Positions 6,678 through 25,676 of a DNA stretch of 64,000 nt are shown here, one piece after another; the first letter of the stretch is position 1, and each line of letters starts with the position of its first letter. A program made the position numbers and the translations under genes. The notes below the pieces were generated by a model. It was not told the origin of the DNA. It did not search any database and saw only the letters and a list, made by a program, of their open reading frames with translations. The stretch is taken from the NCBI GenBank assembly GCA_003602645.1, contig QQSI01000040.1, positions 4,152 to 68,151 of the forward strand, read 5' to 3'. This stretch comes from Candidatus Poseidoniales archaeon (GTDB lineage: Archaea; Thermoplasmatota; Poseidoniia; Poseidoniales; Poseidoniaceae).

Positions 6678-7169
6678 ATGACGACTCTCTATGATATCCC
6701 CGCAGAACTCTTGAACCCTGCTCTTGCTGCGCGTTTGGCCGCTGAAAAGGCTGTTGAAACACCAGATTGGGCTGAATTTGTCAAAACTGGAGTCTCTCGT
6801 GAACGCCCTCCAAGTCAAGAAAACTGGTGGTTCTTGCGATCGGCCGCACTCATGCGAAAAATCGCACGTGAAGGCCCAATCGGTGTGACCCACCTCTCGC
6901 AAGCTTACGGTGGACGCAAGGACAACGGTGCAGCACCCAACACCCCCGGTGTTGCTTCCCGCCACATCATTCGAACCTCGCTTCAACAACTCGAAGCCTC
7001 TGGCCTCGTTGAAAAAGTTCCAACTCGAACCGTGGACACCGAAGACGGGCCTGTCCAACTTTACGCAGGTCGTCGCATCACTGCAGCCGGGCAAAAGATG
7101 ATTGACTCTGTTGCTCACGAATGTCGCCCAGCAGCAGAAGAACAATTCCCAGGTCTATCCAAGTACTGA
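6678..7169 (+). CDS. rps19e: Ribosomal protein S19e (eS19)
   Basis: Characteristic eS19 motifs are present: PDWAEFVKTG, ENWWFLRSAALMRK and the GRR element near the C-terminus. Confidence 0.9.
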   Translation: MTTLYDIPAELLNPALAARLAAEKAVETPDWAEFVKTGVSRERPPSQENWWFLRSAALMRKIAREGPIGVTHLSQAYGGRKDNGAAPNTPGVASRHIIRTSLQQLEASGLVEKVPTRTVDTEDGPVQLYAGRRITAAGQKMIDSVAHECRPAAEEQFPGLSKY

Positions 7170-7194
7170 CGAGGACGTGAAGAGGGTGGCCAGC

Positions 7195-7554
7195 ATGTCG
7201 ACATCGCACGATGATGAACTCAACATGCTCCGAGAACAACGCCGGGCTGCGCTCCAACAACAACTCGAGGCTCAAGCAGCACAGCAAGCCGATGCAGAAG
7301 TACAGGCACAACAAGCACAAGCAGAAGCAGCTCAACTCGATGGGGCAATGCGAACGCTTCTCTCGAACGATGCCCGTTCTCGCCTAGCAACCGTCGCCCT
7401 GGCTACACCTGCTCGCGCCGCATCCATCAAACAAAACATCGTTCAACTTCACTCACAGGGTAAATTCCAAGCCCCTATGTCTGATGATCAACTGAAACAG
7501 TTGCTCGCTTCACACTCCAAGAGCCGCCGTAGTGCGTCCATCCGAAGAATCTGA
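7195..7554 (+). CDS. PDCD5/TFAR19-family dsDNA-binding protein
   Basis: [20 protein letters not shown]...[32 protein letters not shown]...SDDQLKQLL matches the archaeal PDCD5-like family. The ATG at 7195 is preferred; the longer ORF at 7102 overlaps S19e. Confidence 0.8.
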
Positions 7555-8223: not shown

Positions 8224-8454
8224 GTGGCTCTGCGAGTCAACTGGGACCGCACTCCTGTGTCTGTGCATCACGACAGCAAAGAAGTTCTTGAGTTGCTGAT
8301 TCTGCACCTAAGAAACAAACATGGTCTTCGCAAGCGCTCCATCGTGATGGAGGATCGTGAAGAAGGCCCTGGCCACCTGTTTTTTTTGTATCAACCGTGT
8401 GATCCACGGTGGATCGCTGAATTCGATATCACAAAATTTTCTGAGGAGGAATGA
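8224..8454 (+). CDS. Hypothetical small protein with a GTG start, coupled to the downstream methyltransferase
   Basis: A 76-aa ORF fills the gap between S17e and the SPOUT methyltransferase. Its stop overlaps the methyltransferase ATG (ATGA). It has no recognisable domain and could be a non-coding leader instead. Confidence 0.25.
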   Translation: MALRVNWDRTPVSVHHDSKEVLELLILHLRNKHGLRKRSIVMEDREEGPGHLFFLYQPCDPRWIAEFDITKFSEEE

Positions 8455-9296
8455 AGAAAATGGGTGACCGGAGCACACTTCCGTTGCCTCAATCCACCTA
8501 CGGCCTTGAAATTGTATTGATTGGCGTTTCTCATCCCGGCAACCTTGGTGCCGTTTGCCGGAGCATGTTGAATTATGGATTTGCTAACTTGAGGCTGGTC
8601 AATCCCAAATGTGAACCGGATCATATCGAGGCAAGAAACCGGGCCAAACATGCAGGGCGTATCCTCGACCAGTGCGCTGTGTACGATTCTCTTGATGCAG
8701 CAACAGAAGATGCCTCGATGATCATTGGCACGTCTGGAAAACGAGAAATTGGTTCGAAAACAAATTTTAGGCACTTCGTCTATCCATGGGAACTTTCAGA
8801 ACGCTTGGAAGGTTTTACCGGCAAAGTCTGTCTTGTATTCGGTGAAGAAGGAAAGGGGATGTCCACGGAAGACTTGGCGAAATGCGACTATCTTGTCACC
8901 CTCCCTACCTGGGAAGGCTACCCAATTGCCAACCTCTCTCACGCCGTGAATGCGTGTGTTTACGAATTACATCGGAACCGAGTAATTGCTCGACAAGGCA
9001 AGGAACAAGGGTTGCCCGACGTGGTCCCCCTTGAACGGTCGCTCAATCCTGAGTTGAAACAAATCCTTCATCAAACAGTTCGCGAATTAGCGAATGCCCT
9101 TCCCGGAAACGATGAGCGACGTCAGAGTTTTGGACAATCCCTTACGCGTTCAATCATGCGTTCTATGCCAACGCAAGGGGAGGCGACGAGAATGATTGGT
9201 GGTCTTCTTGATGCGACCACTGCAATCCAATACGTCGAGGGCAACGAGGAGTGGCGCAGCCAACGAAGGCGTAAAATCAGTCCTGAGGAAGAATGA
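8451..9296 (+). CDS. SPOUT (SpoU/TrmJ-like) RNA 2'-O-methyltransferase with a C-terminal extension
   Basis: GVSHPGNLGAVCRSMLNYGFANLRLVNP, IGTSGKRE, LVFGEEGKGMSTEDLAKCDYLVTLPT and ANLSHAVNACVYEL are TrmJ/TrmH-type SPOUT motifs. A C-terminal extension of about 100 aa follows. Confidence 0.75.
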   Translation: MKKMGDRSTLPLPQSTYGLEIVLIGVSHPGNLGAVCRSMLNYGFANLRLVNPKCEPDHIEARNRAKHAGRILDQCAVYDSLDAATEDASMIIGTSGKREIGSKTNFRHFVYPWELSERLEGFTGKVCLVFGEEGKGMSTEDLAKCDYLVTLPTWEGYPIANLSHAVNACVYELHRNRVIARQGKEQGLPDVVPLERSLNPELKQILHQTVRELANALPGNDERRQSFGQSLTRSIMRSMPTQGEATRMIGGLLDATTAIQYVEGNEEWRSQRRRKISPEEE

Positions 9297-9302
9297 GTCC
9301 AT

Positions 9303-9752
9303 TCAACCGTGCCAAGAAGCAACGCTCTTTGGCGTTTCCCGAACGTGCATGGCGACCAAACGTAACCTGTTTCCATAGGCTGATTTGATGTGTGGCTCAA
9401 CTTGCTCGAAAGCCCACTTTGCGAGATTTTCTGCAGTCGGAACAAATGGTACCACGACTGTTCTGTGATCTGAGTCCATCATTTCGAGGGCTGCACGGGC
9501 TTGTTGATCGTGCTCGTACACCACAAAGGCATGGTCCACCACATCATGGACATAAACAGTAAGAATTTCACTCACATCTGAGAAATCCATCAACATCCCC
9601 TCTTCTGAGACACCATGTTCTTGAACAACATCGCCTTCAATTTCTGCTTCAAAGCGGTAGCGATGGCCGTGCATGTGGCGGCATTTGCTCTTGTGGTTTG
9701 GCACTCGGTGGCCAGTGTCAGTCTCAATGTATCTTCGTATTCGTGTGGTCAT
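9303..9752 (-). CDS. queD: 6-carboxy-5,6,7,8-tetrahydropterin synthase QueD (PTPS family)
   Basis: The CRHMHGHRY zinc/catalytic motif and the PTPS fold pattern are present. The gene sits within the preQ0 operon. Confidence 0.85.
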   Translation of the reverse strand: MTTRIRRYIETDTGHRVPNHKSKCRHMHGHRYRFEAEIEGDVVQEHGVSEEGMLMDFSDVSEILTVYVHDVVDHAFVVYEHDQQARAALEMMDSDHRTVVVPFVPTAENLAKWAFEQVEPHIKSAYGNRLRLVAMHVRETPKSVASWHG

Positions 9753-10903
9753 TGTTCCAACTCCTCAAACTCTAACGAGGCTGAATTGATACAGTATCTC
9801 ATTCCGCCGTGTTCTCTTGGTCCATCGTTGAAAATATGTCCAAGATGTGCGTCGCATTGAGAACATCGAACTTCTGTTCGAATCATGCCATGCGTGCGAT
9901 CTTCAATCTGATGAATGGACGCCCTTGCATGCTCACTATGGAAGGATGGCCATCCGCAACCTGAATCAAATTTCATGGCTGATGTGAACAGGTGATGACC
10001 GCAACAAATGCAATTGTAGTTTCCACTTCTTTTCTCATTCCAATACGCGCCTGTAAACGCCCTTTCAGTGCCACTTTCTCTCGTGACATGGTATTGCAAT
10101 TGAGTTAATTTTTCCTTGTAGTATGCATCTTTGTGCTTTTGTTCTGTTTCTAAAGCAGCAGCCAAAACAATCTCCCACGGTTCAATGTATTCAATTGGAT
10201 CCACCAAATCAAGTGCGTTAAAGGCAAGAATTCGCTCCACGTCAGAACCGCTTCGCCCTGAACTTCTGCCATCCTGATCGGGGTTGTACGATGTGATGGT
10301 GTTTTCAAAAACTCGGTCGAAATTTAAACCAATTTTGTCACATGAAGCCAAAGCGTCTTTCAAAATGGTCACTTTATCGCCGTCGATGTATGGTAAGTGG
10401 AAGGATACGGTATGGCTGTCCCAGTTTCCAACTGCAAAAGCGTGTTCAAGGGCATGATAAAATTCTGGACGGCAATCGGGGTAGATGGCATGATCGCCTG
10501 AATGCACTCCTAAGGCAATTTCGACATTCGCCTTTTCTCGCTTGGCCACTGAAAGGGCGTATCCGTAGAGAATTGATGCAAAAATAGCGTTTCTATTTGG
10601 AACGACAGTGGATTTCATTTGTTCTTCTTCGTAGTGGCCTTCAGGAACCTTGATGCCTTCATTGATCAAGGACGATTCGAACAAGGTCATCGCTGAAGTT
10701 AAATCGACAATGTGGTGTTCAACGTAGAATCCTTTGTCCTGCAAGTATGCAATGTTGTTTGATGCTCTGGTCAACTCAACGCTGTGCTTTTGGCCGTAAT
10801 TATAGGAAATACAGCTTACATTTTTCCCCTCAGCCAAGGCGTTCAAGAGCAAAGAAGTAGAGTCCATCCCACCTGAAAGTGCCATGACAGTATGCTCAGC
10901 CAT
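9749..10903 (-). CDS. queC: Fusion protein: 7-cyano-7-deazaguanine synthase QueC (N-terminal) fused to methionine-R-sulfoxide reductase MsrB (C-terminal)
   Basis: The N-terminal part has the PP-loop ALSGGMDST and the VPNRNAIFASILYGYALS and YPDCRPEF motifs of QueC. The C-terminal roughly 130 aa carry TERAFTGAYWNEK, NCICCGHHLF, KFDSGCGWPSF and RCSQCDAHLGHIF, which make up the SelR/MsrB domain with both CxxC pairs. The ATG is at 10903. Confidence 0.8.
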   Translation of the reverse strand: MAEHTVMALSGGMDSTSLLLNALAEGKNVSCISYNYGQKHSVELTRASNNIAYLQDKGFYVEHHIVDLTSAMTLFESSLINEGIKVPEGHYEEEQMKSTVVPNRNAIFASILYGYALSVAKREKANVEIALGVHSGDHAIYPDCRPEFYHALEHAFAVGNWDSHTVSFHLPYIDGDKVTILKDALASCDKIGLNFDRVFENTITSYNPDQDGRSSGRSGSDVERILAFNALDLVDPIEYIEPWEIVLAAALETEQKHKDAYYKEKLTQLQYHVTRESGTERAFTGAYWNEKRSGNYNCICCGHHLFTSAMKFDSGCGWPSFHSEHARASIHQIEDRTHGMIRTEVRCSQCDAHLGHIFNDGPREHGGMRYCINSASLEFEELEQ

Positions 10904-11565
10904 CAATCAACACCCATCCATTTGTGTGTTTGGAGGCTTAGGCGCCATTGTGGATTTTCTTTGACCATTGCTTCTGTTTCAGCGAAATTTTTTCCGTTCC
11001 ACTCTACAGATTCTAATTCCATGTAACACGGTTGGAGGAAATGGTGTTTGAACCCTTGTCGCAATTCTTCGTACATCGATAGATCTTGACCTATATACAC
11101 ACACTTCAATTCGTCACCTGTACGTTGACGCAATTTCACTTCTGGATACATTTGATCTTTAGGTGACACACATATCCAATCCAAGAGTCCATCAGGGATT
11201 TCAATGGTTCCATTTGTTTCAACAGATAATGAGTACCCCCTTGCCTTGAGCAAACGATGCAACGGCCAAAGGTTCTGTAACATGGGTTCTCCACCAGTGA
11301 AGATGATTCGCTTACAATCAAACTTTGATAGTTCCCCAAGCAAGTCAATCGCATTCATAGTATTGAATGTTAGAAAATCTGTGTCGCACCATTCGCAACG
11401 GAGGTTACAATTTCCAAAACGAACGAAAACATGAGGAATCCCTGCGTGGTAACCTTCACCTTGAACTGAATGAAACACTTCGACGATTGGATACTCTGCA
11501 GCCAAATCGGTTGGATCATCAACGGGCGTGTCACCGGCACGAACACAGGAGTCGTTAACGGTCAT
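10903..11565 (-). CDS. queE: 7-carboxy-7-deazaguanine synthase QueE (radical SAM)
   Basis: FHSVQGEGYHAGIPHVFVRFGNCNLRCEWCDT matches the QueE signature, including the CxxxCxxC-like cluster arrangement. Confidence 0.85.
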   Translation of the reverse strand: MTVNDSCVRAGDTPVDDPTDLAAEYPIVEVFHSVQGEGYHAGIPHVFVRFGNCNLRCEWCDTDFLTFNTMNAIDLLGELSKFDCKRIIFTGGEPMLQNLWPLHRLLKARGYSLSVETNGTIEIPDGLLDWICVSPKDQMYPEVKLRQRTGDELKCVYIGQDLSMYEELRQGFKHHFLQPCYMELESVEWNGKNFAETEAMVKENPQWRLSLQTHKWMGVD

Positions 11566-11574
11566 ATTCTCACC

Positions 11575-12144
11575 TCAAAGTGGACGTGAATGAATCAATT
11601 GCATGAGTTCTTGCCTTGCTTCTGGTCGTTCAAAAAACACCCCTCGCATGGCCGATGTGGTCATGATTGAATTTTGCTTTTTGACCCCTCTGCATCGCAT
11701 ACATCCATGCTTCGCTTCAATAATGACGGCAGCACCCAACGGTGCTAGATGAGATTCTAAATCATCAGCAACGCCCTTCGTGATACGTTCCTGATTTTGC
11801 AAGCGTTGAGCATGGAGGTCCACAATCCGTGCTAATTTACTGATCCCCACAATCCGCTCAACTGGGATGTACGCAACGTGAGCACGCCCAGTGAATGGCT
11901 GCAGGTGATGCTCACAAGTGGAATGAAATTCAATATCCCTCAGAAGAACAATTCCATCGTAACCCTCTCCATTGAAGGTTGAATCAAGAAGTTCAGCGGC
12001 ATCCATTTGGTAACCACCAAAAATTTCATCCCATGAATCAATCACGCGTTTTGGTGTTTTTGCTAGCCCTTCACGATTTGGTTCAGGTTCAAGGTAGCCA
12101 AGGAGGGTATGCACTGCCTGTTCTGCTTCGTCTCGTGTCACCAT
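11575..12144 (-). CDS. folE: GTP cyclohydrolase I (FolE type)
   Basis: LAKTPKRV, FHSTCEHHLQPF and VAYIP..RIVGISKLARIV are FolE active-site motifs. The ATG is at 12144. Confidence 0.85.
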   Translation of the reverse strand: MVTRDEAEQAVHTLLGYLEPEPNREGLAKTPKRVIDSWDEIFGGYQMDAAELLDSTFNGEGYDGIVLLRDIEFHSTCEHHLQPFTGRAHVAYIPVERIVGISKLARIVDLHAQRLQNQERITKGVADDLESHLAPLGAAVIIEAKHGCMRCRGVKKQNSIMTTSAMRGVFFERPEARQELMQLIHSRPL

Positions 12145-12146
12145 CG

Positions 12147-12341
12147 TCAATCGCCTCCACGCCCATGCCTTGCGTCAATCTCATCCAGTTGGTCTAGCAA
12201 TTTTCTGCACGCCGTTCGAACTGCATCGGCAAGACTGACAAATTTGTGCTCGTCTCCGACATGCTTACGGAGATCTTCAACGAGCTCAGCAGGCATGTCC
12301 AGGGAGATTTTGGGCATAGTTAACGCACCCGATGGTCCCAT
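12147..12341 (-). CDS. Ribbon-helix-helix (CopG-like) small DNA-binding protein
   Basis: MPKISLDMPAELVEDLRKHV gives a beta-strand followed by a helix, typical of RHH. The stop lies 2 nt before the folE ATG. The start may be the internal Met at 12317. Confidence 0.55.
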   Translation of the reverse strand: MGPSGALTMPKISLDMPAELVEDLRKHVGDEHKFVSLADAVRTACRKLLDQLDEIDARHGRGGD

Positions 12342-18484: not shown

Positions 18485-18988
18485 TCAGTGGTGGTGGCCA
18501 CCAGGTCCATGGACGTGTCCGTGGTCCAATTCTTCTGGTGTTGCAGGGCGTAATTCAACAATTTCAACAGCAAAAGTCAGCGATTTTCCTGCGAGAGCGT
18601 GGTTGAAATCTGCGGTGACCAATTCGTCAGTGAGGTTGGTAATGGTAAATGGAGAAGGTCCGTGTGGCATCTGTGCCACGAGTTGCATTCCAGTTTCCAA
18701 AGTGTTTGTTGCTTCGAGTTGGGCGAACTGCTCACGTGGAATTTCCATGACTGCTGCGTCGTCACGATCGCCGTATGCCTGGTCGGATTCTAAGGTGAAT
18801 TCTTTCCGATCTCCCACCTTTGCGCCCATTATTTCTTGCTCAAATCCTGGTATCATTTGCTTTAATCCCACGATGAAAGTCAACGGCTCGCGCCCTTCAC
18901 TGCTATCAAAAACTTCACCGCTTTCAGGGAGTGTTCCTGTATAATGTACGCTAGCAACCATTTTGTCGCTTACTGTATGTTCTGTCAT
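18485..18988 (-). CDS. FKBP-type peptidyl-prolyl cis-trans isomerase (SlyD-like) with a His-rich C-terminal tail
   Basis: The FKBP fold is indicated by VHYTGTL.SGEVFDSS..REPL.F.VG...IPGFE. The insert-in-flap region and a C-terminal HGHVHGPGGHHH metal-binding tail resemble SlyD. The ATG is at 18988. Confidence 0.8.
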   Translation of the reverse strand: MTEHTVSDKMVASVHYTGTLPESGEVFDSSEGREPLTFIVGLKQMIPGFEQEIMGAKVGDRKEFTLESDQAYGDRDDAAVMEIPREQFAQLEATNTLETGMQLVAQMPHGPSPFTITNLTDELVTADFNHALAGKSLTFAVEIVELRPATPEELDHGHVHGPGGHHH

Positions 18989-18993
18989 AATAT

Positions 18994-19974
18994 TCACCTT
19001 CTTGTTGTCATTTTATTGACTAAATCTCGTAATTTTTGAGCTGCGTCTTCAGGAAGAATTTCTTCCATCACTTTTTGCTCTATGAACTCAATGCAATCGG
19101 ATACACCGATTCGCTCTCCCTTGGCCCAAACTTGCCCAAGGATGTTCGATCTATGCTCCTCAGGAATGTTTGGATTATCCAAAATATCCCTTGCAGCATA
19201 CTTGTACTCAAGGTACTTTTGTCGGTTCAACTTCTTTTCTTGCTTTTGTCGACCGCCACCTTTCTTGTCGTGGCGTCGGCGTTTGCGGCGTCGATCCCCA
19301 GATGGTTTTGCTACATCAGTTTGAATGGTTTTGAACACATTGATCGAACCTTGTTTTGGTTCCGATTGAGACACCGGTGATGCAACTGGTTCGATCTTCA
19401 CTTTGTCAGTTTCGATGCTCGGTTCGATGGTGGTCTCTTGAACCGGTGAAACGGCAACGGTGTCTGGCTGCACTTCGCTAGGAACGTCTGCTGGCTTCGC
19501 TTTTGCTTTGGCATTTTGCCGTGAAAGTTCCGACTTCCTCCGCAGTTCTGCGAGACGATCTTCGTGAGAAACTTGTGGCTTGGGAGCTGCTGGTTTTGCA
19601 ACCGAGGTTGTCATAGTCGGGGCGAAGGTTTCCTTTTTGGGTTCCGGCTTAGAGGTGGTTGGTTTTGAGACGCCGCCTTGCTGGCGCTTCATTCGCTCCA
19701 TCGCTTCTTTTTGCTTTTTTGCCAACTCAGTCATCCCAGAATTAGCATCGACTTGGGGGGTGGTGGATCGCGTGGGCGCAGGACGTCGTTCCACGCTTTT
19801 TCGTTCAGTTTGACGCTTGTTGCGTTGTGCGGAAGCGTTCGGGGCGAACGGGTTGAACGGCTCGTCCCGTTTTTTCCTTCCATTTCGGTCTGCGATACGA
19901 GAGGCCCCCACGCTGTTCCCGCTTGTGACCGTATAAAAACAATGAGTGTCCCATGCCGTGATTAAACTGGCCAT
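18994..19974 (-). CDS. Lys/Pro/Thr-rich low-complexity protein with a small structured C-terminal domain
   Basis: This 326-aa protein is mostly basic and predicted disordered (KKRDEPFNPF, KPTTSKPEPKK, RRRKRRRHDKKGGGRQKQEKK). A C-terminal segment of about 80 aa looks globular (YLEYKYAARDIL...ILGQVWAKGERIGVSDCIEFIEQKV). It overlaps the Kae1 stop by 13 nt and ends 4 nt upstream of the FKBP start. Confidence 0.5.
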   Translation of the reverse strand: MASLITAWDTHCFYTVTSGNSVGASRIADRNGRKKRDEPFNPFAPNASAQRNKRQTERKSVERRPAPTRSTTPQVDANSGMTELAKKQKEAMERMKRQQGGVSKPTTSKPEPKKETFAPTMTTSVAKPAAPKPQVSHEDRLAELRRKSELSRQNAKAKAKPADVPSEVQPDTVAVSPVQETTIEPSIETDKVKIEPVASPVSQSEPKQGSINVFKTIQTDVAKPSGDRRRKRRRHDKKGGGRQKQEKKLNRQKYLEYKYAARDILDNPNIPEEHRSNILGQVWAKGERIGVSDCIEFIEQKVMEEILPEDAAQKLRDLVNKMTTRR

Positions 19975-20978
19975 GTGACGGGTGTTTGGTCCGTTCGAAG
20001 GTATTGGTCGACCGCGCTTTGTGCATAGGAGGTTGTTCGTCCATGATCAAGCTCGATCTTACCAAGAAGGGCAATCATGGAACCGTTGTCAATACAGAAC
20101 ATCCTTGGTGGTGCATGAGAGGTTGCATCTCGCTCTTCAGCCATGAGTGTGCACATTTCTCTTAGTCGATTATTGCACGCAACGCCGCCTCCTAACAAAA
20201 CTTCTGACTTTCCTGTGTGTGCCAATGCTCGCTCAGCAATCTCTACACAGGCCGCAAACGAATGCTCTTGCAGTGACCAACACACAGCACCCAATTCTGC
20301 ACCGTTGTCCAACAGTCTTTGAGCGGCGGTCATAACTCCAGAAAAGGCAAGATCCATACCACGTACAGCAAAGGGTAATTCGAGTCCCTCTAAACTTGCA
20401 TTTGGGTTTTTGTCAAGCCATTCACTCGCGAGTTTTTCGATGACTGGGCCACCAGGGAATGGGATGCCTTGCCCTCGTGCAAACTTATCGAGCATGTTTC
20501 CAATGCCAATGTCTAGTGTTTCACCGAGCACTCTGTACCGACCATCGAGGTGTGCAATCACCTGAGTGTTTCCACCTGAGACATAGAGGAGAATAGGATC
20601 GCTGCACCCACATTGTTGACGTCCAATTTCGATATGAGCGACGCAGTGATTGACGCCGATGAGAGGGGTTTCTAATTTACTCGCTAGTCCACGGGCAATG
20701 GCTGCTCCTACCCTCAAACACGGGCCTAGACCTGGACCCTGTGAATAGGCGACAGCTCCGATGTCATCAGCGGCGATTCCATTGGCCTCGAACAAGCGTT
20801 GTAGCAATTCAGATGCAGCGTTTTTGTGATGGTCTGCTGCCTCACGTGGATGAATGCCACCTTCGTCTGGGCGAACGGTCGATGAACTGGATGGTGCAGG
20901 GTTTCCATCTGCATCTACCAAACCAAACGAAAGGGTGTGAGCGGTTGATTCGATCCCCAATGTCCAGAGGCCCGGCAT
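19962..20978 (-). CDS. kae1: tRNA N6-adenosine threonylcarbamoyltransferase Kae1 (TsaD/Kae1/Qri7 family), not fused to Bud32
   Basis: LGIESTAHTLSFGL, AYSQGPGLGPCLRVGA, GVNHCVAHIE and LLYVSGGNTQV are Kae1 signatures. The ATG at 20978 gives MPGLWTLGIE. Confidence 0.85.
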   Translation of the reverse strand: MPGLWTLGIESTAHTLSFGLVDADGNPAPSSSSTVRPDEGGIHPREAADHHKNAASELLQRLFEANGIAADDIGAVAYSQGPGLGPCLRVGAAIARGLASKLETPLIGVNHCVAHIEIGRQQCGCSDPILLYVSGGNTQVIAHLDGRYRVLGETLDIGIGNMLDKFARGQGIPFPGGPVIEKLASEWLDKNPNASLEGLELPFAVRGMDLAFSGVMTAAQRLLDNGAELGAVCWSLQEHSFAACVEIAERALAHTGKSEVLLGGGVACNNRLREMCTLMAEERDATSHAPPRMFCIDNGSMIALLGKIELDHGRTTSYAQSAVDQYLRTDQTPVTWPV

Positions 20979-21029
20979 GGTGGGTGGTTGAAGCCATTGT
21001 TCTTCAACCCTCAGCCTCAGCAAGGAGCA

Positions 21030-22295
21030 ATGCGGACCGTTTTGTTGGACATCGGGCCCATGGCACATCTTGGAGGAAAGGGCTCTTTGTCTGGAACCTC
21101 AGCAACTGACTATGAATTATTGACATCTCCTGCTGGAAAAGGAATTGTAGTGAATGACGGCGTTATTGAGAAAATTGAAGAATCATCCGAACTTCGTTCC
21201 GAGTATGGCTCACCACAAGAATCGACCGTTGACGTATCCATTCAATCCTTGGAGGGTTGTGCGGTTGTTCCTGGTTTAGTGGATGGACATAACCATTTGA
21301 TTTGGTCCGGTGATCGTTCGAATGAGATGACGATGAAGCAGCAGGGAATGACATATCAACAAATCGCGGCTAATGGCGGCGGCATCCAGCACACTGTGAG
21401 GGAAACCTCAGAAGCCACATACGAAGAGCTGGTTAAATCGGGTTACCAACGTATGCGCCAGGCTCTTCTTCATGGTACAACACACTTAGAAAGCAAAAGC
21501 GGATATGGCTTGTCGACAGAATCAGAGCTAAAACTCCTGAATGTTGCACATGACCTAAGCCAGATGAATCACCTCCCCACCATGGAGTTGACATGGCTTG
21601 GCGCCCATGATACACCTAAAGGTGTCAATCGCACAGACTATGTTGAGGAAATTCTAAGCGACCAACTTCCCAAAGTACTTGATCAAGGCTATGCTGATGC
21701 CGCTGATGTCTTTTGCGAGCCAGGCTGGTTCACTGTCGAGGAGAGTGAATTGATATTGTCCGCTGCCGGAAAGGGTGGTCTTCGACAACGGATTCACATT
21801 GATGAATTCGAGGATGGTGGTGGTGGAGAATTGGCAGCATCACTGGGTGTCGTTACTGCTGATCATGCCCATTACACTGCGCCTGAAACGCGGTTGAAGA
21901 TGGAATCCGCCGGCGTCAATACTGGATTTTTACCAGGAACCCCCTATACAATGGGTGCAGAATGGCCTTCATTTTCAGATGCCACTGAACAGGGGATTCG
22001 GTGGACAGTTGCAACGGACTTCAATCCAAATTGTAATATTCTCAGCATGCCGCTGATTGGATCTATGCTTGTTCACCGTAACCAAGTTGACCCACTGCTT
22101 GCATTGGTGGCCTCAACCAGAAATGCGGCAGAAACGACTCCACACCCAACGGGGATGCCACATGGGCGAATCGAGGTTGGCGCAGTCGCTAACCTCAATG
22201 TGCTCGATGGGTACCAATGGCAATCATGGTGCAATCGTCCTGGTACCACGCCTTTCAAATCCACCATGTTGAATGGTACTTTGATTCACCATTGA
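21030..22295 (+). CDS. hutI: Imidazolonepropionase HutI (amidohydrolase)
   Basis: PGLVDGHNHL, GGGIQHTVRETS, TTHLESKSGYGL, LGAHD, HIDEF, ADHAHY and TDFNP are present. The ATG at 21030 is preferred over the TTG at 20988. Confidence 0.85.
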   Translation: MRTVLLDIGPMAHLGGKGSLSGTSATDYELLTSPAGKGIVVNDGVIEKIEESSELRSEYGSPQESTVDVSIQSLEGCAVVPGLVDGHNHLIWSGDRSNEMTMKQQGMTYQQIAANGGGIQHTVRETSEATYEELVKSGYQRMRQALLHGTTHLESKSGYGLSTESELKLLNVAHDLSQMNHLPTMELTWLGAHDTPKGVNRTDYVEEILSDQLPKVLDQGYADAADVFCEPGWFTVEESELILSAAGKGGLRQRIHIDEFEDGGGGELAASLGVVTADHAHYTAPETRLKMESAGVNTGFLPGTPYTMGAEWPSFSDATEQGIRWTVATDFNPNCNILSMPLIGSMLVHRNQVDPLLALVASTRNAAETTPHPTGMPHGRIEVGAVANLNVLDGYQWQSWCNRPGTTPFKSTMLNGTLIHH

Positions 22296-23182: not shown

Positions 23183-23258
23183 GGGCTCGTGGTCTAGGGG
23201 TTATGACGTCGCCTTGACATGGCGAAGATCGAGAGTTCAATTCTCTCCGAGCCCACCA
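23183..23258 (+). tRNA. tRNA-Val (anticodon GAC) with an encoded 3' CCA
   Basis: A hand-folded cloverleaf gives acceptor gggctcg/cgagccc, D-arm gtc...gac, anticodon stem tcgcc/ggcga with loop ttGACat, T-arm gagag/ctctc with loop ttcaatt, a discriminator A and a CCA end. Confidence 0.85.
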
Positions 23259-23718: not shown

Positions 23719-25605
23719 TCACTCCACGAACATGTCTTCCTGGTAGCCCGTGATGATATCCCCTGTACCATCTTCCTCGATTGTCACGGTTTCGTCTTCG
23801 TCATCGAACTCTATGATTGTTCCAAAGACCTCCTCGTCCTCAAGTGTAAGACCGATGTGTGAGCCAATATCGATTTCTCCTTCCCCTTCATCATCCTCAT
23901 CTTCCTCAGGTTCATCTGACTCGTCATGAGATTCATCATCCAACTCTTCATCTTCGAAATCCTCTTCGAGAGCCTCTTCCATTTCTTCTTCGAGGTCCCC
24001 ATCATCATCATTATCTTCAGATTCGGACGAAGCATCTGCTTGATCGTCTTGGACTTCCTTCATTGCCTTAGCGCGTGCACGCCAGCTAGGCATGAGCGCT
24101 AGATGCATGTAAAGTGAACCAGCTAATCCTGCTGCGCCAAGTACCATAAACAAAATACCGTCCCAATAGAAACCAGCAGGCATCGAACTTGCTTCACCAC
24201 TTAGGGGCGTTAACGAGTTCTTACAGTCGCCTTCCTGAATTGCTGGATCACAAGGGTAAGAATCACCTTCGGCAAGACCCGCAGGAGGGAGTAAATTGCC
24301 TTTGGTCTCTAGCTCAATTGGGCCGCCAGTTCCATCGACAATGACACCGAATCCATTCACGACCCACACGGCAATGAAAAGGCCAAATGCTAAGTGAATC
24401 AACGGCCATACATATTCGTTCCATTGCTTCCCCATCATGCGCTTTTGCATATCAGTTGGGAAGGGTTTGGTTGGTTTGCTGATGACAGCTCTTTCATCCG
24501 TTGCTTCATCGGCATCTGCCAAATTTTCTAAAGCTGTGATGAATTCTATCATGTCCACCGTTCGATCGTTGTCATCATCAACTTCAGACAGGAATTCTTC
24601 GATATCCTTGTGACCGATTTCATCATCAAAGAGCTTGTTCAATTCGTTCATTAGTTCGACAACATCGACGCGCCCATTGGCATCTCTGTCAATGCTCTTG
24701 AAGAATTGAGCTGGCGAGGTTTCCATTTCATCCATGGCATCAGCGATTTTGCGAATGAGCGAAACCTCCTCGATGCTTTCTTCTTCTGAAGGATCTTCAT
24801 CGGACGCCTCATCTTCGTCCATTGATTCTTCGCCGTTTTCCTCTTCTGAATCCAATGTTTCCTCTTCGACCACCTCTTCGTGTTCTGATTCAGAATCTTC
24901 AGATTCGTCATCATCCTGGGAATCTTGGATTTCCTCTTCATCAAGGTTTGATTCTGTTTGAACTTCTTCGTCAGGTTCGCCTTCATCCTCTGTTTCAATT
25001 TCCTCTTCTGGATCATCATCCACTTGGATTTCGGGATCGGTTTCCACCTCATCGTCTGAGTCATTGTCTTCTTCGTTTTCCGAATCTTCTTCCATTGCAT
25101 CCTCATCTTCAGAGGTTGTTGAATGATCCATTTTTTCGTCTTCTGGCAAGTCATCTCCGGTGATGGTTTTATGCAACTCAGCAAGGTCAATCCTTCCATC
25201 TCCGTCAGCATCGATTGTCTCAATGAGGCGCTCAACTTGAGATGGTGGCAAATCTGCTAGATTGAGGCTCAACAGTCCTGACTTCAATTCACTTGAGTCG
25301 ATTTGACCATCGCCATCCTTGTCAAATTTATTGAACAGCATCGGAATTGTAATCCCTGTTGTTGCCAACCAATTGCGCAGCACATCAACGACGTCGTCGG
25401 CGATAAAAACTGTACCACAGTGGCTACATTTTGTGGAATCTAAAGGCACGAGGCCACCGCATGCACCGCACTCTCCGAGGGCTTCATCGGATACACCGGA
25501 AAAAGAAATATTACATTCAGGACATTTGGTTGAATCGAGGGGAATTACTGCTCTGCAAGCACCACATTCTCCTGTAGCAACTTCTTCAGTCTTGTCTTCG
25601 GACAT
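23719..25605 (-). CDS. Membrane protein with N-terminal double zinc ribbons, four EF-hand calcium-binding loops and long poly-acidic tracts
   Basis: Two CGAC..(11)..CxxC ribbons are present. Four canonical 12-residue EF loops occur in two pairs: DKDGDGQIDSSE and DADGDGRIDLAE, then DRDANGRVDVVE and DDDNDRTVDMIE. A tract of about 150 aa is almost entirely D/E. Two TM helices flank an exposed loop containing Cys. A second acidic tail follows. The ATG is at 25605. Confidence 0.7.
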   Translation of the reverse strand: MSEDKTEEVATGECGACRAVIPLDSTKCPECNISFSGVSDEALGECGACGGLVPLDSTKCSHCGTVFIADDVVDVLRNWLATTGITIPMLFNKFDKDGDGQIDSSELKSGLLSLNLADLPPSQVERLIETIDADGDGRIDLAELHKTITGDDLPEDEKMDHSTTSEDEDAMEEDSENEEDNDSDDEVETDPEIQVDDDPEEEIETEDEGEPDEEVQTESNLDEEEIQDSQDDDESEDSESEHEEVVEEETLDSEEENGEESMDEDEASDEDPSEEESIEEVSLIRKIADAMDEMETSPAQFFKSIDRDANGRVDVVELMNELNKLFDDEIGHKDIEEFLSEVDDDNDRTVDMIEFITALENLADADEATDERAVISKPTKPFPTDMQKRMMGKQWNEYVWPLIHLAFGLFIAVWVVNGFGVIVDGTGGPIELETKGNLLPPAGLAEGDSYPCDPAIQEGDCKNSLTPLSGEASSMPAGFYWDGILFMVLGAAGLAGSLYMHLALMPSWRARAKAMKEVQDDQADASSESEDNDDDGDLEEEMEEALEEDFEDEELDDESHDESDEPEEDEDDEGEGEIDIGSHIGLTLEDEEVFGTIIEFDDEDETVTIEEDGTGDIITGYQEDMFVE

Positions 25606-25676
25606 GGGCACACCTAATCCACCGACTACAACAACGGATATAATGATTCATAGTCTTTCAACGGTTACCCATACCA

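Follow-up and report, generated by a model that had tools for sequence, protein, structure and literature searches.

A conserved basic protein of Poseidoniales, encoded between kae1 and a SlyD-like FKBP gene, matches no family in the libraries searched

What is the basic protein encoded between kae1 and the gene for a SlyD-like FKBP in marine archaea of the order Poseidoniales, and does it work with either neighbour? We addressed this question in a stretch of 64,000 nucleotides from a Candidatus Poseidoniales archaeon (assembly GCA_003602645.1, contig QQSI01000040.1, positions 4,152 to 68,151), which we call the window; all coordinates below are window positions. On the minus strand, kae1 is followed by the middle gene, here called X, then by the FKBP gene and by a gene for methylmalonyl-CoA mutase. 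Poseidoniales, or Marine Group II, are globally abundant marine archaea, and we know of no cultured representative. An initial annotation, made from the sequence alone, described kae1, X and the FKBP gene as an overlapping three-gene string. The open reading frames lie where it had placed them. Judged by its conservation, X is an autonomous, translated and strongly conserved gene of the order Poseidoniales, and tentatively its product could be an adaptor that binds nucleic acid. The features of the locus are as follows.

19962..20978, minus strand: kae1, encoding a standalone archaeal Kae1 of 338 amino acids, the threonylcarbamoyltransferase of N6-threonylcarbamoyladenosine (t6A) synthesis; ATG at 20978, stop TAA at 19962-19964
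19932..19939, minus strand: TTTTTATA, putative TATA-like box of X, whose T5 run is also a possible oligo-T terminator for kae1
19905..19911, minus strand: GTGGGGG, the invariant NTGGGGG element, read either as start codon and Gly codons or as predicted transcription start and Shine-Dalgarno-like GGGGG
18994..19911, minus strand: gene X, 305 amino acids from GTG 19911 or 300 from ATC 19894-19896; stop TGA at 18994-18996
18994..18999, minus strand: AGGTGA, Shine-Dalgarno-like sequence for the FKBP gene, made of the last Arg codon and the stop of X and lying 5 nucleotides before ATG 18988
18485..18988, minus strand: gene for a SlyD-like FKBP peptidyl-prolyl isomerase of 167 amino acids with an insert-in-flap region and a short His-rich tail
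18443-16842, minus strand: methylmalonyl-CoA mutase gene

The full X protein has 975 homologues at E ≤ 0.001. A pattern scan in which a single genome represented each GTDB species found X in 113 of these representatives. The patterns used, KKGGGRQK and LNRQKYLE, limit matches to one family of Poseidoniales. We kept 80 loci, which are titled Poseidoniales, Poseidoniaceae, Poseidonia or generic euryarchaeote/Methanobacteriota metagenome-assembled genomes, apart from one titled 'Verrucomicrobiales'. Across 63 unique Poseidoniaceae sequences the frame of X stays open for 276-300 codons, and its C-terminal 116 amino acids are 66-98% identical between species. The ratio of nonsynonymous to synonymous substitution rates (dN/dS), estimated with dS near saturation and from the few pairs that qualified, is 0.05 in the N-terminal motif, 0.13 and 0.28 in two spacers, and 0.03 in both the central helix and the C-terminal part. 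The concern that the middle frame might be unconserved in close relatives is answered by these homologues, species and ratios.

It could still be argued that X is a chance reading frame or a decaying spacer and not a functional protein-coding gene, given its low-complexity composition, its unusual start region and a database annotation that says only 'hypothetical protein'. This view is effectively refuted by the open frame in the 63 sequences, by dN/dS well under 1 in every segment, by the identity of the C-terminal part between species and by a confident AlphaFold model of the X domain. We regard it as extremely improbable.

The family and its domain are undescribed within the family and structure libraries searched. 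Protein X matched zero families in Pfam and NCBIfam at E ≤ 0.1, and its short-form relatives (see below) likewise matched none apart from one zinc finger. When 97 X-domain sequences were scanned one by one against Pfam, no family recurred. Searches of the PDB by sequence and by profile gave only chance matches for X, to glutaredoxin and Cas10 at E > 0.2, and a Foldseek search with the domain model against the PDB and BFVD gave no match below E 0.2. Kae1 and the FKBP are of ordinary types, and so far nothing shows that the locus is a system of a new kind. X, a core gene present in 113 species-representative genomes, encodes a domain unmatched in these libraries, so heterologous biochemistry has a concrete target here.

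We searched 1.84 billion cluster representatives with a profile built from the C-terminal 116 amino acids and obtained 144 matches. The stronger ones are long forms of 200-390 amino acids, with an N-terminal motif of the RRR...EPxNPF type, a variable spacer and the domain. The weaker ones (E 1e-6 to 1e-3) align over almost their full length, are about 100 amino acids long and show the pattern MARRRK..., MLNM, F-x-YD, ...AKASR..., ...RYSxWR. In these short forms a basic N-terminus is fused straight to the domain, without a spacer. Since they hold only these two parts, it looks as if the basic N-terminus and the domain are the ancestral unit and a long spacer was inserted in Poseidoniales. Both named short forms come from 'Candidatus Thermoplasmatota archaeon'. 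The short forms occur in unrelated gene contexts, away from kae1 and with no FKBP neighbour, and a search for a recurrent partner gene beside them found none. One short form from Candidatus Thermoplasmatota (P0229, 164 amino acids) carries an N-terminal CxxC-x17-CxxC treble-clef zinc finger (PF23477, TIGR04272), followed by a Gly/Ser-rich linker and the domain. The CxxC-x17-CxxC module binds zinc in small proteins of Methanosarcina, where its role is unknown (PMC12704099).

The anatomy of protein X was derived from conservation maps and from two AlphaFold runs, one on the last 100 amino acids and one on the full length, which agree with one another. For P18, F22 and the residues of the domain, invariance was judged from 68 long-form sequences; residues are numbered from GTG 19911, and the predicted local distance difference test score is abbreviated pLDDT.

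19843..19878, minus strand, residues 12-23: N-terminal motif RKKRDEPFNPFA, a basic cluster and an EPxNPF short linear motif
Residues 26-42, 61-77 and 116-138: three isolated basic helices, pLDDT 72-86
19498..19566, minus strand, residues 116-138: central basic helix HEDRLAELRRKSELSRQNAKAKA, the third of these, predicted with pLDDT 74-86
Remainder of residues 1-205: disordered spacer, pLDDT below 55
Residues 191-198: NVFKTIQT, a short conserved motif at the end of the spacer, before the Arg-rich tract
19231..19296, minus strand, residues 206-227: Arg/Lys-rich tract DRRRKRRRHDKKGGGRQKQEKK, directly before the folded domain
18997..19236, minus strand, residues 226-305 (77-80 amino acids): C-terminal domain, consisting of a strand, four helices and a strand

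As the initial annotation had proposed, the protein is basic and mostly low-complexity or disordered: its isoelectric point (pI) of 10.08 compares with a median of 5.4 among 31 other open reading frames of the window, its net charge is +23, and most of residues 1-205 fall below pLDDT 55. Residues 1-135 and the tract ahead of the domain carry the charge (segment 191-228 has a net charge of +11), while the domain itself has a pI of 5.8. The chain contains 25 prolines and a conserved EPFNPFAP motif.

Several of these parts are strongly conserved. The N-terminal motif is kept in the 63 Poseidoniaceae sequences, with P18 and F22 almost invariant among the long forms and pLDDT of about 67. The third helix (EDRLAELRRKS) is nearly invariant, with R, A, E, L, R, R, K and S invariant in one of the conservation maps, and KKGGGRQKQEK within the Arg-rich tract is invariant as well. 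A conserved C-terminal module of about 80 amino acids, also proposed from the sequence alone, is borne out by the conservation maps and the structural models. Modelled alone with AlphaFold2, the last 100 amino acids reach pLDDT 91.3 and a predicted template modelling score of 0.76, and the full-length model has the same elements. Here the first strand (KKL) is predicted to pair with the last (TTR). G265, E266, R267 and the C-terminal R305 are invariant, W262, A263 and T302 nearly so, and protein X carries the signature of the domain family, W-A-K-G-E-R with a terminal T-T-R-R. In the model, the paired ends of the domain would bring the invariant C-terminal Arg-Arg to the same pole as the Arg-rich tract.

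Where X begins is less straightforward. Its longest reading spans 326 amino acids (18994..19974) and overlaps kae1 by 13 nucleotides, and a 100% identical copy of this frame is deposited as a hypothetical protein. The overlap is an artefact of choosing the longest frame: ATG 19974 and the next 21 codons are not conserved as protein. Close relatives read ...THCFYTVTSG... in the 21 codons upstream of GTG 19911, the DNA that encodes this peptide is in another frame at two loci (L030 and L033), and most other species have an in-frame stop just upstream of the conserved start region. We rejected THCFYTVTSG as a genuine N-terminal peptide because of these frame changes and stops; the conservation belongs to the DNA element TTTTTATA. 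The deposited 326-residue model is very probably too long, and the annotation is corrected here to one whose start region is unusual and highly conserved.

The NTGGGGG element is present in 62 of 62 unique loci; its first base can be T, A or G and is C in none. All 62 have GGG as codon 2, though other synonymous sites vary, and codon 4 is a stop (TAG, TAA or TGA) in nine of the 62 unique sequences, which belong to at least five separate groups, one of them with a TAG/TAA pair. Because codon 2 is always GGG and stops occur at codon 4, the likelier constraint on NTGGGGG is at the nucleotide and not at the codon level. The nine genomes have no other ATG, GTG or TTG ahead of the conserved N-terminal motif. 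The absence of C at N would equally suit a start codon.

All 62 sequences have ATC or ATT as codon 6, and in Poseidoniaceae GGGGG lies 8 nucleotides before this codon. At the equivalent site, other long-form lineages have a Shine-Dalgarno sequence (GAGGTGAT or GGAGG) and then ATG or TTG, giving MARKR..., MARRE... or MQRRRR.... From these comparisons it appears more likely that X starts at ATC 19896 by AUC/AUU initiation, behind a short leader with a Shine-Dalgarno-like GGGGG. GTG 19911 is a possible start where the frame is open. Either start lies 51-66 nucleotides after the kae1 stop.

Of 61 unique upstream regions, 60 have a TTTTA core centred 24-26 nucleotides ahead of NTGGGGG, in 53 of them at exactly 25. 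The archaeal TATA box is centred about 26 nucleotides upstream of the transcription start. We infer that transcription of X would start at about 19908-19910, and the T5 run could terminate that of kae1. We found nothing on promoters of Marine Group II in the literature, and an Rfam search of the region gave no match. Of the proposed overlapping string, the three genes are real, but X has its own TATA-like box and start region and is set apart from kae1 by a spacer.

The other side of X is different. The FKBP gene most likely starts at ATG 18988, 5 nucleotides after the X stop and behind AGGTGA; a start at the overlapping GTG 18997 is probably not used. The gap between X and the FKBP gene is 4-8 nucleotides in relatives. 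X is followed by the FKBP gene in all 80 species loci where the contig allows this to be seen, and also in L011, L013 and L101. In two divergent long-form lineages (L009/L010 and L099/L100), however, the order is kae1, X, mutase, with no FKBP gene between X and the mutase gene, so the pairing is not universal. Judged from this arrangement, co-transcription of X and the FKBP gene, probably with coupled translation, is the best-supported link of the string. The coupling originally proposed therefore holds for the tight X/FKBP pair, except that the FKBP gene is missing here in two sister lineages, and was not borne out for kae1 and X.

The FKBP itself matches Pfam PF00254 (FKBP_C) with 64.5 bits (cutoff 21.1, E 1.2e-17). 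Its residues 9-167 align in one continuous stretch with residues 6-160 of E. coli SlyD (2k8i, E 1.9e-29), and the same residues align with residues 7-156 of T. thermophilus SlyD (3cgm, E 3e-27). Because continuous SlyD alignments span the insert, the protein has the insert-in-flap chaperone domain. It scores 114.8 bits with the NCBIfam SlyD equivalog PRK10737, which is under the cutoff of 174, and for this reason we call it SlyD-like and not a certified orthologue. SlyD of E. coli and T. thermophilus and the short insert-in-flap FKBPs of archaea have the same FKBP fold, inserted chaperone domain and His-rich C-terminus, although the tail of the window protein (DHGHVHGPGGHHH) is much shorter than that of E. 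coli SlyD. The original description of a SlyD-like FKBP with a His-rich tail agrees with the Pfam and structure matches.

Kae1 is, by its sequence, an orthodox standalone Kae1. The gene starts at M31 of the open reading frame 19962..21068. The protein scores 437.7 bits with the NCBIfam model TIGR03722 (arch_KAE1, cutoff 375), covering positions 2-323 of 323, and 246 bits with Pfam TsaD (PF00814, E 7e-73). The solved Kae1 structures of M. jannaschii and P. abyssi match it over its full length (residues 5-336) at E of about 1e-97. The translation contains VNHCVAHIE, with the motif His-x-x-x-His, which from family knowledge we take to be the metal site of the ASKHA active site. The Kae1/Bud32 fusion model NF007174 has 535 positions, of which 3-325 and no others are matched, and the frame stops at 19962, so there is no Bud32 half. 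These scores and the half-matched fusion model uphold the earlier call of a Kae1 without a Bud32 fusion. Upstream, only 9 nucleotides separate kae1 from the divergent amidohydrolase frame if the latter starts at TTG 20988 (window 20979-21030). Its true start is probably a Met near 21030, and in relatives the spacer to kae1 is about 57 nucleotides.

The initial annotation suggested looking for a conserved neighbourhood of kae1 in related genomes, and we found one. At every long-form locus examined the order is amidohydrolase (divergent), kae1, X, FKBP (present or absent), methylmalonyl-CoA mutase and epimerase. This covers the 80 species loci as far as the contig reaches, together with L001-L005, L009-L014 and L099-L101, with Kae1 identity down to 64% and X-domain identity down to about 35%. 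However, the order is kept within a frozen block of about 12 kb of metabolically unrelated genes, which also includes an ABC transporter. The synteny is not specific to kae1, since conservation extends to the entire block. In addition, a promoter-like element precedes X itself, and the short forms are found elsewhere. We infer that the position of X beside kae1 is inherited synteny and not evidence of a shared machine. One locus, L081 (NZEQ01000052.1), is labelled 'Verrucomicrobiales bacterium isolate ARS100' and contains the full archaeal block, from amidohydrolase through kae1, X and FKBP to mutase; its Kae1 is 76% identical to that of the window. It is almost certainly a mis-binned Poseidoniales contig.

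What might X do? The initial annotation suggested either an RNA- or ribosome-binding factor or a partner in the t6A pathway, and of these its anatomy speaks rather for a nucleic-acid binder. The reading that we favour, with a probability of roughly 0.4, is that X is an adaptor that binds nucleic acid, probably RNA, and is made together with the SlyD-like chaperone. The nucleic acid would most likely be RNA, of the ribosome or a tRNA, held by the Arg-rich tract, the domain and the basic helices, while the docking-type EPFNPF motif at the N-terminus would recruit a protein partner. X would be transcribed from its own TATA-like promoter just after kae1, with a short leader containing GGGGG. It would be co-transcribed and probably translationally coupled with the FKBP gene, and the FKBP may assist the proline-rich X chain. 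The closest design is that of RNA binders with a basic tail and a small domain, such as many ribosomal proteins and the arginine-rich-motif and RGG proteins. Like X, these have basic disordered extensions beside a small conserved globular domain, with invariant basic stretches. However, X has no homology to any ribosomal protein family or structure and its gene lies outside a ribosomal operon, so the likeness is an analogy of design and not one of membership. Several points weigh against the adaptor reading. No nucleic-acid-binding family, fold or motif was matched by X, the argument for RNA is made only from charge, Arg-rich and GGGR composition and conservation, and the folded domain itself is not basic. 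Furthermore, the adjacency of kae1 and X at about 35% X-domain identity is compatible with a functional link between the two, and the neighbourhood is rich in tRNA-modification genes. If X binds ribosomes or works with the FKBP, this would indicate a new archaeal accessory of translation or folding.

The last two points bear on a different role, in which X is a lineage-specific accessory subunit or partner of Kae1 and the KEOPS complex in t6A synthesis, for example a factor that recruits or positions tRNA, analogous to Cgi121 or the Bud32 tail. In many Euryarchaeota, bud32 holds the slot directly after kae1. X fills this slot in every long-form lineage seen, even where the domain is about 35% identical and the FKBP gene is absent, and no Bud32, Cgi121 or Pcc1 was found among 30 open reading frames of the window that were scanned. 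X resembles Bud32 and Cgi121 by position and composition only. Within KEOPS, t6A requires an invariant Arg in the C-terminal tail of Bud32, and the tRNA is recruited through its CCA end by Cgi121 (PMC11621456). The Arg-rich tract and the invariant C-terminal Arg of X could likewise touch tRNA, although X matches neither a kinase nor a Cgi121 family. Further tRNA-modification genes lie nearby, and these tRNA-related neighbours raise the prior for a tRNA role a little. Gon7/C14orf142, the fifth KEOPS subunit in fungi and metazoa, and archaeal Pcc2 are small or partly disordered, lineage-restricted and hard to detect by sequence, according to one account (PMC9889334). X is also partly disordered and lineage-restricted, and gene order is its one link to KEOPS. 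By contrast, Gon7 and Pcc2 bind Pcc1, not Kae1, and X, at 300 amino acids, has a four-helix domain instead of a beta/alpha fold like that of Pcc1. X resembles none of Bud32, Cgi121, Pcc1/Pcc2 or Gon7 in sequence or fold. The structures of Bud32 and Cgi121 are absent from the Foldseek and profile matches of X, and the absence of any Pfam or NCBIfam family agrees with the initial annotation that no known KEOPS subunit matches the middle protein. X as a degenerate Bud32 C-lobe was rejected, having no fold or sequence support. A promoter-like box and a T5 tract separate kae1 from X, the frozen block also keeps the amidohydrolase, methylmalonyl-CoA mutase and epimerase genes, and the short-form homologues are not near kae1. 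Beyond gene order our results do not point specifically to a KEOPS role, and we consider it unlikely. A more specific version, slightly less probable again, is that X is an unrecognised Poseidoniales-specific partner of standalone Kae1 that acts as an RNA tether: its Arg tract and domain would hold tRNA, EPFNPF or the central helix would dock KEOPS, and X, started at AUC/AUU, would supplement or replace tRNA recruitment by Cgi121 and the Bud32 tail. If X does bind tRNA or KEOPS, it would be a lineage-specific addition to a universal tRNA-modification pathway.

The adaptor reading grants the FKBP an assisting role, and a stronger version would make it the actual partner of X. In that case X could be a dedicated proline-rich client that depends on the isomerase to fold or to stay stable, or the basic half of a two-gene chaperone that tethers it to ribosomes or RNA, loosely like trigger factor. 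The 5-nucleotide spacing, the Shine-Dalgarno sequence built from the last codons of X, the order kept in the Poseidoniaceae loci and in L011, L013 and L101, the prolines and EPFNPFAP motif of X and the SlyD chaperone insert of the FKBP are consistent with this. However, the two long-form lineages without an FKBP gene at the locus and the short forms without an FKBP neighbour speak against a dedicated pair, and SlyD-type FKBPs are general chaperones. We judge this about as doubtful as the KEOPS role. The composition of X could also suggest that it binds DNA, as a chromatin or nucleoid-associated protein resembling histone H1, with Lys/Pro/Ala-rich tails and a small globular domain. Stretches such as KPTTSKPEPKK, VAKPAAPKP and AKAKAKP, a pI of 10.1 in an acidic proteome and the universal presence of the gene across Poseidoniales species representatives would fit. 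Yet the Lys/Pro/Ala stretches are the least conserved parts of X (dN/dS 0.13-0.28), the basic parts that are conserved have the Arg-rich, GGGR-like composition more usual in RNA binders, and no known DNA-binding fold was matched. A chromatin role therefore seems improbable, more so than the KEOPS and FKBP roles. We found no paper that connects Poseidoniales with Kae1.

We now note further genes of the window. The genes for preQ0, the archaeosine precursor, form a set that shares the strand of kae1 and lies about 7 kb downstream of it; together with a SpoU-type methylase gene, the set occupies window positions 8451-12150.

11575-12150: GTP cyclohydrolase I, preQ0 set
10903-11565: radical-SAM QueE-like gene, preQ0 set
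9749-10906: QueC-SelR (MsrB) fusion, preQ0 set
9303-9752: PTPS/QueD, preQ0 set
8451-9296, plus strand: SpoU-type methylase

In relatives, QueC and SelR are encoded by separate genes, and an AlaX-like gene occurs near the locus. A tRNA-Val with anticodon GAC (23183-23258, plus strand) is the sole Rfam/ARAGORN match in the 64-kb window. Two further genes are unrelated to X: one for a protein with a PF01984 double-stranded-DNA-binding domain (7102-7554, plus strand) and one for a Tsr3-type ribosome biogenesis protein (PF04034; 34579-35169, minus strand).

A protein of 630 amino acids is encoded at 23719-25611 on the minus strand, and has two N-terminal zinc ribbons and EF-hand pairs. It contains 199 Asp and Glu residues, with a net charge of -167 and a pI of 4.05. 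EF-hand pairs form the NPF-binding EH domains of eukaryotes, and the EPFNPF motif of X would be a conceivable ligand. The gene for this acidic protein is syntenic in relatives where the flank reaches it.

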